A DNA stretch of 64,000 nt. Source: Bacteroidales bacterium. GTDB taxonomy: Bacteria > Bacteroidota > Bacteroidia > Bacteroidales > UBA10428. The notes beneath the pieces are model-generated. The model did not search any database. It was not told where the DNA came from and worked only from the letters and a program-made list of their open reading frames with translations. This document shows, piece after piece, positions 2,965-46,508 of the stretch. A program made the position numbers and the translations under genes. Each line of letters opens with the position of its first letter. The first letter of the stretch is position 1. The stretch is from NCBI GenBank assembly GCA_041737295.1, contig JBGSSA010000141.1:397-64396 (forward strand). The letters are read 5' to 3'.

Positions 2965-2970
2965 AAAATG

Positions 2971-2990
2971 ATTTGTTGATTTGTTGATTG
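2971..2990. repeat. 8-mer tandem repeat (ATTTGTTG) x2.5
   Basis: Direct reading: atttgttg atttgttg attg. Confidence 0.9.
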
Positions 2991-2993
2991 TTT

Positions 2994-3056
2994 AGGCTGA
3001 AGGTTGAAGGCTGAAGGCTGAAGGCTGTAGGATGAAGGCTGTAGGATGAAGGTTTT
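2994..3056. repeat. 7-mer tandem repeat (AGGCTGA and variants AGGTTGA/AGGCTGT/AGGATGA) x9
   Basis: Direct reading shows nine contiguous heptamers. Confidence 0.95.
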
Positions 3057-3084
3057 TAGGGAGTCTTCTCCAGAAGAGGAACTG

Positions 3085-3140
3085 ACTGCAAGACTGCAAA
3101 ACTGCATAACTGCAAAACTGCAAAACTGCAAAACTTTCTC
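3085..3140. repeat. 8-mer tandem repeat (ACTGCAAA) x6, ending in the junction unit ACTTTCTC
   Basis: Direct reading: actgcaag actgcaaa actgcata actgcaaa x3 actttctc. Confidence 0.95.
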
Positions 3141-3171
3141 ACTCGTCCCTCGTCACTCGTCCCTCGTCACT
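3141..3171. repeat. 14-mer (two alternating heptamers, ACTCGTC/CCTCGTC) x2.2; minus strand reads GTGACGA/GGGACGA
   Basis: Direct reading. The repeat overlaps the last 6 codons and the stop of the histidine kinase gene. Confidence 0.9.
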
Positions 3172-11662: not shown

Positions 11663-11684
11663 GAGATTGAAGTCGGAAACGTTA

Positions 11685-11783
11685 AATCGAATGCAATGAG
11701 ATTTCTTCTCTGCGCCCTCAATAAAGCCTGGTAAACAAACCTTTAGCGTTCTTCGCGAAAACTCAGCGGCCTCTGCGTTAAAA
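11685..11783 (+). repeat. Dispersed ~100-nt core element, copy A
   Basis: AATCGAATGCAATGAGATTTCT...AAAGCCTGGTAAACAAA..CTTTAGCGTTCTTCGCGAAAACTC..CTCTGCGTTAAA. About 95% identical to copy C by hand alignment. Confidence 0.85.
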
Positions 11784-11843
11784 CGTTTGAGCGGATCTTT
11801 CCCGGCACTCGCAGATTAACAACACCCATTTCTGGAAAAGTTC

Positions 11844-12030
11844 AATCGAATGCAATGAGATTTCTCAGCGACCTACTTAAAGCCTGGTAAACAAAACTTT
11901 AGCGTTCCCTGCGAAAACTCTGCGACCTCTGCGTTTAAATTTTCCGGATATCTTATAATTATCCTGATCGATTTTTCCTGCACCCTGCAGAAGTAAAACT
12001 GCAAAACTGCAAAACTGCAGTGAACTGCAG
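11844..12030 (+). repeat. Core element copy B, plus CCGGATATCTTATAATTATCC hairpin segment, plus (AACTGCAA/G)x4
   Basis: Roughly 160 of 178 positions match the reverse complement of 45739..45913 by hand alignment. Confidence 0.85.
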
Positions 12031-17941: not shown

Positions 17942-18023
17942 AAAATAATAATTTACAAAACAATACCTTTTATTATACAAACGGAAAATTGGTTTTGCCG
18001 AAGATTATTCGGTAATTTGCAGT

Positions 18024-19274
18024 ATGTCTGTCATCTTTAACAAGCGGAAGATTATAAACGACCCTGTTCACGGGTTTATTATCATTCCTACCCCATTCAT
18101 TTTTGATTTGCTTGAACATCCTTATGTACAGCGGTTGCGGCGGATAAAACAGCTTGGACTTACAAGCCTTGTCTATCCGGGTGCTACTCACACCCGTTTC
18201 CAGCACGCCCTGGGTGCGATGCATCTGATGGGACTTGCCATTGAGAATATCCGGCAGAAAGGCACGGAGATCACGGAGGAAGAAGCAGAAGCGGTGACAG
18301 TAGCCATTCTGTTGCATGACATCGGCCACGGGCCATTCTCGCATGCACTTGAAGAAAGCATGATCGCCAACGTGAGCCATGAGGAACTCTCGATGCTGCT
18401 GATGAATGACCTGAACAGGGAATTTGGCGGAAAACTTACAACGGCCTTATCAATTTTCCGGAATCTGTACCCCAAAAAATTTCTGCACCAGCTGGTTTCG
18501 GGACAACTCGACATGGACCGGATGGATTACCTGATGCGCGACAGTTTTTTCGCGGGGGTGATTGAGGGCGCCATTGGAACCGAACGGATCATAAAAATGC
18601 TGAATGTGTCGGACGACCAATTGGTGGTGGAAGCCAAGGGAATCTATTCAATTGAAAAATTCCTCATTGCCCGCCGGTTGATGTACTGGCAGGTATATTT
18701 TCATAAAACTGTGATCTCTGCTGAAAATCTGCTCGTAAAATTATTGCAGCGGGCCGGGGAAGTAGCCGAAAGGGATCCGTCACTTGCCGCAACCCCTCCC
18801 CTGGCGTATTTTCTCAGGAACAGGATCACCCGCCGCACCCTGGAAGAAACTCCGGAAGAAACCCTTGGTTACTTTGCCGCTCTCGATGACGATGACATCA
18901 TGGTTTCTGCCAAGGCATGGACCGGTCATCCCGACAGGCTGCTATCGCTCCTGGCGGATCACCTGATCCGTCGGATCCTGCCAAGGGTGAAAATTCTGGA
19001 AACACCTGTTCTTCCTGAAATGATTGTAACGCTACGACAACAAGCGGCTGACATCTTTAAACTCGACCCGGATAGTGCTGAATATCTTGTATATGCTGGC
19101 ACTATCGCCAACAAAGCATACAGTATAACCACGGATACAATTAAGATTCTATACAATACAGGAGAGGTCAGGGACCTGGCTGAAGCATCCGATATCTTCC
19201 AGATACAGAATCTGAATGAGACGCGGAAAAAATATTTTATATGCTATCCCAAAGATTTTGGCTTAAATTATTAA
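18024..19274 (+). CDS. HD-domain phosphohydrolase (SAMHD1/dGTPase-like superfamily)
   Basis: 416 aa. THTRFQHALG...LLHDIGHGPFSH...DMDRMDYLMRD are HD-domain metal ligands. Confidence 0.8.
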   Translation: MSVIFNKRKIINDPVHGFIIIPTPFIFDLLEHPYVQRLRRIKQLGLTSLVYPGATHTRFQHALGAMHLMGLAIENIRQKGTEITEEEAEAVTVAILLHDIGHGPFSHALEESMIANVSHEELSMLLMNDLNREFGGKLTTALSIFRNLYPKKFLHQLVSGQLDMDRMDYLMRDSFFAGVIEGAIGTERIIKMLNVSDDQLVVEAKGIYSIEKFLIARRLMYWQVYFHKTVISAENLLVKLLQRAGEVAERDPSLAATPPLAYFLRNRITRRTLEETPEETLGYFAALDDDDIMVSAKAWTGHPDRLLSLLADHLIRRILPRVKILETPVLPEMIVTLRQQAADIFKLDPDSAEYLVYAGTIANKAYSITTDTIKILYNTGEVRDLAEASDIFQIQNLNETRKKYFICYPKDFGLNY

Positions 19275-25419: not shown

Positions 25420-25463
25420 TGACGGTGTCCCCCGCTGGCGGGGGCAGGGGGTGGATTAGAAGA

Positions 25464-32731: not shown

Positions 32732-33025
32732 GTGGGAAAGAAAAGAATAATCAAATCTTATGAGCAACTGTCGGAAGAAATGGTTGAACGGTTAAAAGCG
32801 AAGTACCCCGACGGATATGAAGACAGAACCATCACCTTCACTAACCCCAGGGGTGAGATCGAAGTTGCTATTCCCTTCGAAACGGAAGAAATTTATTATC
32901 TTATCAAACTTCCCCGTACGAACGCTGCGGAAGAAGAGGAAGAAGTTGAATCATCTTCTTTTGATGAATTCGACAATTTCGAAAGCCTTGAAATAGGAGA
33001 TGATGTCTCCGAAGACGAAGAGTGA
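32732..33025 (+). CDS. Hypothetical small protein with an acidic C-terminal tail
   Basis: 97-aa ORF with a GTG start. The N-terminal 60 aa looks globular, followed by a D/E-rich tail. No family recognised. Confidence 0.5.
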   Translation: MGKKRIIKSYEQLSEEMVERLKAKYPDGYEDRTITFTNPRGEIEVAIPFETEEIYYLIKLPRTNAAEEEEEVESSSFDEFDNFESLEIGDDVSEDEE

Positions 33026-33050
33026 TCAATAATCGGTAATCTTCATTGAG

Positions 33051-33209
33051 ATTGGATACTGGATATTGGATACTGGATACTCGATATACCAGCATCCAGT
33101 ATCCAGCATCCAGTATCCAGCATCCAGTATCCAGTATCCAGCATCCAGCATCAAGCATCCAGCATCAAGCATCCAGTATCCAGCATCCAGCATCCAGTAT
33201 CCGACTACC
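33051..33209. repeat. Inverted heptamer arrays: (AYTGGAT)x5, then the complementary (AGYATCC)x17
   Basis: Units tiled by hand across 33051..33085 and 33091..33209. The last degenerate unit contains the ung stop codon. Confidence 0.95.
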
Positions 33210-33885
33210 TGCCCAAATCCCAGTTAATCTCTTCCAATCCGTGTTTCCTAAGGATTTCGTTGGTTTTGGAAAAATGCCGGCATCCGAAAAATCCGTTATA
33301 GGCTGAAAAAGGAGAAGGATGAGCTGCCTTTAAAATATAATGCCGGTTTGTATCGATCAATGACTCTTTTTCCTGAGCAAATTTTCCCCAAAGAAGGAAT
33401 ATTAATCCCACTCTTTTTTCCGATAACCCTGAGATTACAGCGTGTGTGAAATTTTCCCACCCTCTGCGCTGATGAGAGCCCGGTTGATTGGCCCTTACCG
33501 TTAATGTGGCATTCAGCAGCAATACCCCCTGCCTGGCCCATTTTTCAAGATTTCCGCCTGCAGGTACCTTAATGCCCAGGTCCTTTTCAATTTCCTTGAA
33601 TATATTCACAAGCGACGGAGGCGGACTGATGCCCTGCGGAACGGAAAAGCACAGGCCATGCGCCTGTCCCGGCCCGTGATACGGATCCTGTCCCAGTATA
33701 ACCACCTTAACCTGGTTGAAAGGAGTAAGCTGAAAGGCATTGAAAATCTGCGATCCCGGAGGGTACACTGGATATTTTGCCTTTTCTTCAGTCAAAAATT
33801 CCTTCAGCTCCATAAAATAGGAGCTGCCGAACTCAGATGCAAGAACCTCCTTCCAGCTTTCTTCAATTTGTGGATTTACCTGCAT
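33205..33885 (-). CDS. ung: Uracil-DNA glycosylase
   Basis: VVILGQDPYHGPGQAHGLCFSV and HPSPFSA motifs. Confidence 0.96.
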   Translation of the reverse strand: MQVNPQIEESWKEVLASEFGSSYFMELKEFLTEEKAKYPVYPPGSQIFNAFQLTPFNQVKVVILGQDPYHGPGQAHGLCFSVPQGISPPPSLVNIFKEIEKDLGIKVPAGGNLEKWARQGVLLLNATLTVRANQPGSHQRRGWENFTHAVISGLSEKRVGLIFLLWGKFAQEKESLIDTNRHYILKAAHPSPFSAYNGFFGCRHFSKTNEILRKHGLEEINWDLGR

Positions 33886-45673: not shown

Positions 45674-45687
45674 TCAGTAATCGGTAG

Positions 45688-45714
45688 TAGAGACAAGGCA
45701 ATGCCTTGTCTGTA
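45688..45714. terminator. Hairpin repeat of the TAGAG-stem-loop class after mlaF
   Basis: AGACAAGGC-AAT-GCCTTGTCT (9-bp perfect stem, 45691..45711) with partial extension. It has the same TAGAG 5' flank as the hairpins at 29551 and 29595. Confidence 0.55.
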
Positions 45715-45738: not shown

Positions 45739-45913
45739 CAGTTTTGCAGTTTTGCAGTTTCCTTCAGCAGGGTATAGGAAAATCGATCAGGATATTTATA
45801 AGATATCCGGAAAATTTAAACGCAGTGGTCGCAGAGTTTTCGCGAAGAACGCTAAAGTTTTGTTTACCAGGCTTTATTGAGGTCGCAGAGAAGAAATCTC
45901 ATTGCATTCGATT
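45739..45913 (-). repeat. Core element copy C, plus hairpin segment, plus (AACTGCAA)x2.5, in minus orientation
   Basis: Its reverse complement aligns with 11844..12020 over the full length, at about 89% by hand alignment. Confidence 0.85.
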
Positions 45914-45932
45914 TATATTTCCGGAATCAGAT

Positions 45933-46004
45933 CAACCAATCAACCAATCAACCAATCAACAAATCAACAAATCAACAGATCAACAAATCAACAAATCAAC
46001 AAAT
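45933..46004. repeat. 8-mer tandem repeat x9 (CAACCAAT x3, CAACAAAT x2, CAACAGAT, CAACAAAT x3)
   Basis: Direct reading. The last T is the first base of the complement of the DUF4834 stop codon. Confidence 0.95.
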
Positions 46005-46267
46005 TACTTCACCTCCTCATAATCCACATACACTCCGCTTCTGGGCTTATTTTTATTATTCTGCTGAGGTGAATAATCGATAGAAACTTCCCCTTCCTGC
46101 TTCTTTGCCTTTTGCGATTTCTGGTATTCCTTTTTATGCTGTTTGGCAAATTCCCTTGCTTTGTCATCCATAAAATTGAAAAACAACGCAGGCATAATGT
46201 ACCTCATAAATAACCGGATAATATAGGTTATTATTATTATGATCAGTATAGTCCTGAGTACCGCCAT
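46004..46267 (-). CDS. DUF4834-like small membrane protein
   Basis: N-terminal TM helix LRTILIIIIITYIIRLF, a K/Q-rich linker, and the C-terminal GEVSIDY...YVDYEEVK typical of this family. ATG 46267 is preferred over TTG 46288. Confidence 0.6.
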   Translation of the reverse strand: MAVLRTILIIIIITYIIRLFMRYIMPALFFNFMDDKAREFAKQHKKEYQKSQKAKKQEGEVSIDYSPQQNNKNKPRSGVYVDYEEVK

Positions 46268-46285
46268 ATCAATACTATTTTTGTA

Positions 46286-46293
46286 CAAAGATA
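46286..46293 (-). promoter_or_regulatory. Candidate -7 promoter box TATCTTTG for the DUF4834 gene
   Basis: Perfect TAnnTTTG match on the minus strand, 18 nt upstream of ATG 46267. Confidence 0.4.
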
Positions 46294-46302
46294 CTAATTT
46301 GT

Positions 46303-46337
46303 AGTTGAAAGTTGATGGTTGATGGTCGATAGTTTTA
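46303..46337. repeat. 7-mer tandem repeat (AGTTGAA, AGTTGAT, GGTTGAT, GGTCGAT, AGTTTTA)
   Basis: Direct reading. It is the complement of the TCAACNA family. Confidence 0.85.
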
Positions 46338-46351
46338 CACGGTAACGGACA

Positions 46352-46431
46352 GATTGCATGACTGCACGACTGCGCGACTGCCGAACTGCCGAACTGCTAA
46401 ACTGCTAAACTGCAAAACTGCAAAACTTTCT
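46352..46431. repeat. 8-mer tandem repeat x10 with stepwise unit drift, from GATTGCAT to AACTTTCT
   Basis: gattgcat gactgcac gactgcgc gactgccg aactgccg aactgcta x2 aactgcaa x2 aactttct. Confidence 0.95.
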
Positions 46432-46459
46432 TGTCCCTTGTCCCTTGTCCCTCGTCCCT
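46432..46459. repeat. 7-mer tandem repeat (TGTCCCT x3, CGTCCCT)
   Basis: Direct reading, followed by T8. The module order matches 3085..3171. Confidence 0.92.
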
Positions 46460-46508
46460 TTTTTTTACTACCTTTACGGGCGTTAAAAAATAAATCCCAA
46501 AAAAACAC

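Follow-up and report, generated by a model that had tools for sequence, protein, structure and literature searches.

The inverted pair of heptamer arrays found between the convergent genes for a short acidic protein and for uracil-DNA glycosylase (ung) is not special to this site: it is one of 38 inverted pairs in a class of polar arrays found throughout the genome of an uncultured Bacteroidales bacterium (source assembly of 5.42 Mb in 258 contigs, 43% GC), and it is a member of a described, unexplained repeat class rather than a bespoke structure. The pair can be read as a dispensable repeat hairpin, driven by slippage, that stops transcription without a U-tract or protects 3' ends, in either case for both convergent mRNAs; whether this is so we regard as about an even call. 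The features of the spacer, numbered along the window (the whole stretch of 64,000 nt that was analysed), are collected in Table 1.

Table 1. Features of the spacer between the acidic-protein gene and ung
Feature	Position	Strand	Basis and remarks
97-aa acidic-protein gene	32732..33025	+	ORF list; E/D-rich C-terminal tail; convergent with ung
Relic AATCGGTAATC of an older GGTRATC/GATYACC unit family	33031..33041	+	Sequence; comparison with L003, L002 and L082
Short (left) arm, 5 heptamers: ATTGGAT ACTGGAT ATTGGAT ACTGGAT ACTCGAT	33051..33085	+	Sequence; TRF
Predicted hairpin, 35 pairs (19+9+7)	33053..33140	.	Centroid of + strand RNA; same stem in - strand RNA and in DNA
Hairpin tip ATACC, 5 nt	33086..33090	.	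Junction ..GATATACCAGCAT..
Long (right) arm, 16 heptamers: AGCATCC/AGTATCC/AGCATCA	33091..33202	-	Sequence; TRF
Degenerate unit GACTACC (GGTAGTC in ung sense)	33203..33209	-	Sequence
ung, uracil-DNA glycosylase, PF03167	33205..33885	-	ORF list; Pfam

The sequence-only reading had described five heptamers followed, after 5 nt, by 17 reverse-complement units; we find the same gap and the same total, made up of 5 units and then of 16 clean units and one degenerate unit (TRF, at period 7, gives 4.9 copies for the short array and 16.3 for the long one). It was also right that the pair fills the spacer between the acidic-protein gene (+) and ung (-), that the ung stop codon (TAG, which is CTA on the + strand, at 33205-33207) falls within the last, degenerate unit, and that, as far as the window goes, the unit family is confined to this structure: if at most one mismatch is allowed, the 14-nt pattern GGATRCTGGATRCT has 18 matches in the window (0.05 in shuffles), all of them here. 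The left arm starts 25 nt beyond the stop codon of the acidic-protein gene (33023-33025). Both arrays, located between the two stop codons, are non-coding, and the ORFs that run through them (e.g. 33046-33306 on the + strand and 33026-33193 on the - strand) are artefacts of stop-free units. The short arm has more G than C when read in the sense of the acidic-protein gene; the long arm reads GGATGCT/GGATACT/TGATGCT in the sense of ung, again with more G than C, its + strand (AGCATCC) being C-rich and G-poor. The degenerate unit GACTACC is likely a relic of GGTGATC, the source of the ung stop TGA in two relatives (L002 and L003). The neighbours at the locus are genes for a homoserine dehydrogenase, the acidic protein (which matched no Pfam family), Ung (PF03167; 79-92% identity to genus relatives) and a DUF3352 protein.

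Independent Logan contigs from one run match this region at 100% and confirm the outer ends, as well as left arm and tip and, of the right arm, its first four and last four units; since these contigs break inside the array, the copy number in the middle of the right arm (17) rests on one assembly. The proposal that C and T alternate in a patterned way along the long arm is weakly supported: adjacent variants are identical in 2 of 15 cases (permutation P=0.036) and variants two units apart in 8 of 14 (P=0.08), which gives P=0.015 for both tests together. The order of variants would fit duplications of 14-nt blocks, (AGCATCC AGTATCC)x3 and (AGCATCA AGCATCC)x2.

Arrays of this kind are abundant in the genome. 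At a TRF score of at least 40, 507 heptamer and 405 octamer arrays were found, in about 119 unit families, and the neighbouring periods were much rarer (7 hexamer and 68 nonamer arrays at the same score); a block-shuffled genome gave one heptamer and one octamer array (two in all). At a looser threshold the whole-genome total rises to 1809 arrays. Based on crude, ORF-based gene calls (4295 ORFs), the arrays are densest in convergent spacers (3.75 per kb, vs 1.5 in tandem and 0.7 in divergent spacers): 146 of the 344 convergent spacers of 20-400 nt have at least one array, and 82 have at least two. A further 122 arrays lie at contig ends. About 10% of the genes end at an array, regardless of gene function.

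These arrays are strongly polar with respect to the genes they follow. Among the 437 stop-proximal arrays (from -30 to +10 nt of a stop codon), 87% have more G than C in the sense of the gene; near start codons, C exceeds G in gene sense in 52-60% of arrays. The order of adjacent arrays is also one-sided: a G-rich array is followed by a C-rich one in 121 cases, and the reverse order is seen in 13. Both arms at the ung locus obey the rule: read along the gene that it follows, each is GGATRCT. A supply of stop codons in all frames was ruled out as the cause of the polarity: among arrays that lie 0-10 nt after a stop and whose units are stop-free on both strands, 75 out of 84 have more G than C and none has more C than G, so stop-free units are equally polar. 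Seeding of arrays from the commonest gene termini seems not to hold either: the gene for an MFS transporter next to purA (see below) does end in GTG GAG TAA, which is the unit GGAGTAA, but the commonest terminal heptamers of array-free genes (AAAATAA etc.) are not array units, and array units are rare as single gene termini.

Arrays of different units often follow one another in chains. Two chains of four to six different arrays lie in the window (2969-3171 and 45739-46460), and in many convergent spacers the order outward from the gene is GTGACGA/GGGACGA at the stop, then GCAGTTTT, then others. On contig C33 (61500-62100), two tRNA genes each lie between ATTTGTTG and AAATCAAT arrays in a chain of five alternating inverted pairs.

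Across the genome, 38 neighbouring array pairs are reverse complements built of the same unit. Among the 121 converging neighbours, 27 share their unit, whereas 9.6 +/- 2.9 are expected, and none of 2000 partner shuffles reached 27; direct neighbours with the same unit are not enriched (10 vs 7.2 and 9 vs 6.9 expected). The remaining 78% of converging neighbours are built of unlike units that do not pair, so forming hairpins cannot be what the arrays are generally for. We saw no genome-wide signal that inverted arrays replace classic terminators: classic hairpins are present in two out of 11 spacers with inverted pairs and in 21-30% of spacers elsewhere.

The unit of the ung junction recurs outside the window in more than 20 further arrays with up to 41 copies; the 22 GGATRCT arrays with at least three copies in the genome have unrelated flanks. 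Three loci carry inverted GGATRCT pairs, namely the ung junction, C191:106547-106718 (5.4 + 13.6 copies) and a locus on contig C72. GGATRCT with the same A/G polymorphism is present in 13 out of 25 genus genomes; among 16 other families it is absent. None of 99 other genera of the order has the most abundant octamer of this genome, AAAACTGC. The GGATRCT array with most copies (41, at C118:20377-20665) carries the A variant at roughly each third or fourth unit and is preceded by 11.6 copies of AGATACT (C118:20295-20665 in all); a crude ORF caller reports this array as a 104-aa ORF, which is spurious. Such arrays call for caution in annotation: they break short-read assemblies, yield spurious ORFs and supply stop codons.

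A 14-nt tip, GGATATACCAGCAT, lies inside inverted GGATRCT pairs at non-orthologous loci, about five in all: it is found at C191, at a locus on C97 (left arm and tip only), at the apparent counterpart of the latter in another genome of the genus (G020) and in a second one (G024). The junction at the ung locus, ..GATATACCAGCAT.., is a tip of the GGATATACCAGCAT type with one mismatch (the others have G for C before ATATACC). No shared tips were found in the other inverted-pair families, whose tips all differ.

The two arms at the ung junction are predicted to fold together whichever strand is considered. The minimum free energy (MFE) is -57.8 kcal/mol for RNA of the + strand (z -7.5 against dinucleotide shuffles), -76.3 kcal/mol for RNA of the - strand (z -6.0) and -28.7 kcal/mol for DNA of the + strand (z -6.25). 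In the predicted stem the short arm is paired with the approximately six nearest units of the long arm, and about 60 nt of long-arm units, from the end of the stem at 33140 to the last clean unit at 33202, are left unpaired. The MFE structure accounts for 0.4% of the ensemble, and therefore many registers compete; the hairpin of about 35 bp with several alternative registers that had been proposed from the letters is thus predicted on either strand, although its stem is imperfect, with mismatches. As a repeat-matched control we used adjacent arrays from this genome and computed the energy gained on joining two arms: it is -46/-48 kcal/mol at the ung locus, against a median of -28 kcal/mol for 22 inverted pairs of like units and of -2 kcal/mol for 63 pairs of unlike units. 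The folding is therefore better than that of the repeat-matched controls (median -2 kcal/mol), contrary to the outcome that the sequence-only reading had named as refuting a terminator or structural role.

A stable stem-loop is thus present 3' of each gene, but it is not a canonical intrinsic terminator, because neither side has a T/U tract: none follows the stem on either strand, and a consensus terminator scan of 33026-33204 returned no terminator. In a search of Rfam, the matches were sub-threshold and generic (hairpins of the miRNA-precursor kind). The structural part of the sequence-only reading hence stands as far as the hairpin folding goes; a canonical terminator, or a device specific to this locus, is not supported. 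In the + strand RNA the stem is followed by about 60-85 nt of AGCAUCC units (43% C and 14% G), and the genome has rho, as an open frame of 612 aa.

Comparison of the same junction in related species reveals a rapid turnover. In 10 out of 11 close relatives ung again has the acidic-protein gene as its convergent neighbour, and what lies between the two differs widely. L003 (Ung 89% identical) has about 28 copies of GGTGATC/GGTATTC followed by about seven inverted units (-121 kcal/mol); L002 and L082 have shorter inverted GGTRATC arrays, the whole spacer of L002 being one hairpin (-56 kcal/mol); L006 has mixed arrays that pair in part; L007-L010 have a classic GC hairpin, CAGGCGCGGA....TCCGCGCCTG, followed by TTTTTATTT in the sense of the acidic-protein gene (i.e. 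with a T-tract on that gene's side); and L004 and L032 have almost no spacer and no hairpin (the two stops are 15 nt apart in L032). The junction of L001 holds one arm and an element of about 110 nt that is dispersed in these genomes (AATCGAATGCAATGAGATTTCT...GCCTGGTAAACAAA...CTTTAGCGTTCTTCGCGAAAACTC...; approximately 4760-4870 in L001). Copies of this element lie in the window at 11676-11790, 11835-11935 and 45819-45915 (reverse), flanked by ATTTGTTG-type arrays on one side and by AAAACTGC arrays on the other.

Traces of an older pair remain at the ung junction of the window itself. In L003, L002 and L082, GATTACCGATTACC adjoins the stop of the acidic-protein gene, comparable to the relic AATCGGTAATC of the window, and a second relic, GGTAGTCGG (33200-33209), is present on the ung side; the two pair as the outermost stem (UAGUCGG/CCGAUUA in the MFE structure). 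With GGTRATC relics at both outer edges, the GGATRCT pair lies inside the older pair. The ung stop is in the first unit both in the window (GGTAGTC) and in L003 (GGTGATC). Variation is also seen at the strain level: a Logan contig from another run (L084), with 96.5% identity over 1.8 kb of flank, has a short arm of at least six units in a different order (ATAAGAT ATTGGAT ACTGGAT ACTGGAT ATTGGAT ACTGGAT ATTG..).

The junction between purA and the MFS transporter gene, compared across 30 species, behaves similarly. Inverted pairs of five unit families are found there: GGAGTAR (in this genome), ATTTACG (a pair that flanks a classic bidirectional terminator), GATTGTR, GATKGAA and GTCATGCA. The remaining species show arrays on one side only, classic hairpins, or a gap of 14 nt between the stops, and the content of this junction is different in almost every species; for example, of two genus relatives (L118 and L119), one has about 25 copies of TCTTGGY by the end of the MFS gene and another a chain of CAGTCTR/TAGTCTK arrays. 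From this variety it follows that inverted pairs of the same unit arise repeatedly and are dispensable. The hairpin at the ung junction is likewise dispensable, because L004 and L032 at ung, and L092, L094 and L095 at purA, have none and almost no spacer.

Our preferred reading would connect these observations as follows. Each of the two convergent genes is trailed by a GGATRCT array in its own sense, as part of a genus-wide class of polar arrays in 3' flanks; and since both arrays share the unit in the sense of their own gene, they are mutually reverse complementary. Slipped-strand mispairing would create and resize the arrays, including the steps of 14-nt blocks, and the GGATRCT arrays would here have displaced the older GGTRATC pair, leaving the relics at both outer edges. 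The RNA from either gene would then form a hairpin of about 35 bp, imperfect and with many registers, which would most likely act as a factor-independent or partly Rho-assisted stop and as a block to 3'-exonucleases for both mRNAs. The classic GC hairpin may fill the same role at the ung junction of the sister species, and the element at this junction would be dispensable and fast-evolving.

Somewhat less probable, though a serious contender, is that the pair is a neutral or selfish by-product: slippage DNA that is tolerated only in 3' spacers, its second arm being a fold-back or template-switch copy and its hairpin having no selected role. The rapid gain, loss and replacement of arrays at two orthologous junctions (with many species lacking an array and having almost no spacer), the change of the short arm between strains, the unpaired state of most neighbouring arrays, the 122 arrays at contig ends and the failure of the authors of the Xanthomonas repeat study to find a function (PMC4692102) all agree with it. 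However, plain slippage leaves unexplained why identical units, R polymorphism included, turn up at dozens of unrelated loci and in 13 out of 25 genus genomes, nor does it account for the strict polarity of stop-free units or for an inverted-pair excess (2.8-fold) that is specific, direct neighbours being not enriched. A role in loading Rho we think unlikely: the unpaired AGCAUCC units of the + transcript might be a rut site that stops transcription antisense to ung or, in general form, arrays might be positioned to give C-rich RNA whenever antisense or leader transcription comes in. The composition and length of the unpaired remainder, the 5:17 asymmetry of the arms, the order met by a transcript leaving its gene (a G-rich array and then a C-rich one, 121 vs 13 genome-wide), the excess of C over G in gene sense before start codons (52-60%), the presence of rho and the partly Rho-dependent termination at REP325 (bioRxiv 10.64898/2026.03.23.713779) would suit such a role, whereas some abundant units, e.g. 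AAAACTGC, have no YC dinucleotide, and C-rich arrays between co-oriented genes would give polarity within operons. Such loading by the C-rich remainder of the long arm would be compatible either with the stop that we prefer or with an absence of any selected role.

The shared tip, together with a Y1 (RAYT-type) transposase encoded in the genome, raises the idea of a mobile, REP- or MITE-like hairpin, in which a GGATRCT pair with its GGATATACCAGCAT tip is copied by a transposase and its arms expand later; the tip recurs in inverted GGATRCT pairs at C191, C97, G020 and G024 and, with one mismatch, at the ung locus. This is very unlikely, as the transposase gene is flanked by a different hairpin repeat (TTTCTACCGACAGAAAATCCCTACCGGGATTAGGGAGGG), nothing else is common to the flanks of the 22 GGATRCT arrays, and the tips of the other inverted-pair families are all different. 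A phase-variable contingency locus, in which copy number would switch ung or the acidic-protein gene, is scarcely credible: heptamer arrays are prone to slippage and copy number does differ between strains, but the arrays lie 3' of both genes, outside promoter and reading frame, the ung stop is reached by the last, degenerate unit alone, and about 10% of all genes, whatever their function, end at such arrays. We hold it just as improbable that the structure is an assembly artefact, with array-bearing contig ends misjoined or copy number collapsed. Short-read unitigs do break inside the array, and 122 arrays lie at contig ends; yet the adjacency of ung and the acidic-protein gene is kept in 10 relatives, long contigs included, and an independent assembly continues, at 100% identity, from the acidic-protein gene across the short arm and the tip as far as long-arm units, which it also enters from the side of ung. 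A broader proposal, which we consider distinctly unlikely though less so than a mobile hairpin, is that the arrays are the cis part of a lineage-wide gene-boundary system, in which a dedicated activity would add units from a restricted set, working outward from gene ends, by templated repeat addition or hairpin-primed copying, with both arms made in one event; if so, the arrays would be evolvable, register-slipping terminators or Rho-loading structures, and unit families would be replaced in bursts, as with GGATRCT over GGTRATC, inside-out, at the ung junction.

Several other repeats accompany the arrays. The Y1 transposase gene (C118:18123-18590; PF01797, 93.6 bits) is flanked by two copies (17990-18110) and three copies (18690-18840) of a hairpin repeat of about 40 nt, ..TTTCTACCGACAGAAAATCCCTACCGGGATTAGGGAGGG.., with about 11 copies genome-wide; this repeat and the gene resemble a REP/RAYT system that is distinct from the heptamer arrays. 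The palindrome GTAGAGACAAGGCAATGCCTTGTCTCTAC (window 45687-45711) belongs to a dispersed hairpin family; blast, which counts each locus on both strands, gave 100 hits for it, or about 50 loci, and these typically lie midway along convergent spacers with arrays on either side. At window 25428-25457, the GC hairpin element TATCCCCCGCTGGCGGGGGCAGGGGGTGGATT is directly followed by (ATTTACG)x9; it has about 49 copies in the genome, often by arrays.

Heptamer-rich intergenic DNA has been noted for decades (in cyanobacteria, Xanthomonas, Beggiatoaceae and a few Bacteroidetes) without explanation. The present genome is an unusually rich case, with its 119 or so unit families and about one gene in ten ending at an array, and two orthologous junctions show the dynamics directly: among sister species the same spacer may be empty, hold a classic hairpin, or carry inverted arrays built of any of four or five units. 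It can now be tested whether inverted arrays are terminators, how the second arm is made, and why the reading of stop-proximal arrays is always G-rich.

Heptamers of the STRR type in cyanobacteria were reportedly described by Mazel in 1990. Long simple sequence repeats (LSSRs) with units of 5-11 nt have been surveyed more widely; heptamers are dominant among them, their phylogenetic distribution is sporadic, and polymerase slippage has been proposed as what drives them (Mrazek et al. 2007, as summarized in PMC4679880). The arrays described here resemble LSSRs and STRRs in having a 7-nt unit repeated head-to-tail in at least four copies of non-coding DNA; they differ in what is reported for them, as polarity relative to genes, inverted pairs and comparison of orthologous junctions do not figure in those surveys as summarized there. 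Closer in taxonomy are the intergenic TAACTGA heptamers of Beggiatoaceae, cyanobacteria and five Bacteroidetes (MacGregor 2015, PMC4679880): their arrays are sometimes long and mixed with other heptamers, are missing from the orthologous spacer of the closest relatives, and are places where contigs end. However, TAACTGA arrays are mostly found just upstream of starts, in forward orientation (one inverted pair was noted), whereas GGATRCT arrays here lie downstream of both genes.

The hairpin at the ung junction invites comparison with REP/BIME elements, which are likewise extragenic, imperfect hairpins without a U-tract in 3' UTRs, often between convergent genes and variable in location among strains. 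In Escherichia coli, REP hairpins without U-tracts are partly Rho-dependent terminators as well as mRNA stabilisers, and a REP between convergent genes is associated with increased expression of the two (bioRxiv 10.64898/2026.03.23.713779). Membership in the REP/RAYT group was rejected: REPs are conserved sequences of about 35 nt mobilised by RAYTs, unlike the stem here, which consists of tandem heptamers; about five loci have nothing more in common than the 14-nt tip, and the RAYT gene of this genome has unrelated palindromes. As in bidirectional intrinsic terminators, such as those of L007-L010, one hairpin is shared by two convergent transcripts; but those terminators have 6-12 GC-rich pairs, in contrast to the 35-bp stem with mismatches and without an A/T tract described here.

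The closest parallel is the GGGAATC repeat of Xanthomonas, dispersed over about 180 intergenic loci (Rehm et al. 2015, PLoS One, PMC4692102). From 0 to 50 nt after a stop codon, or where an array overlaps one, the coding strand is the G-rich one, and before starts the non-coding strand is; 70-75 convergent inverted pairs are able to form stem-loops; arrays are under-represented between divergent genes; their length and sequence vary between close relatives; and no function has been established, although RNA-seq showed transcript starts or stops to be more frequent within G4-forming repeats than within control repeats of the non-G4 kind (PMC4692102). GGGGA(C/T)T heptamer arrays are known from Nostoc/Anabaena (PMC4692102). 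GGATRCT arrays are likewise polar, present at many unrelated intergenic loci, and in part arranged as convergent inverted pairs. GGGAATC has tracts of three to four G, G-quadruplexes and a preferred copy number of 4, unlike GGATRCT, which, having only GG, cannot form a G-quadruplex; a tract of three or more G defines the subfamily of Rehm et al. only, and not heptamer repeats generally. In further contrast to Xanthomonas, the genome analysed here has about 119 unit families, mixes 7- and 8-nt units, and carries arms of up to 17-41 copies.
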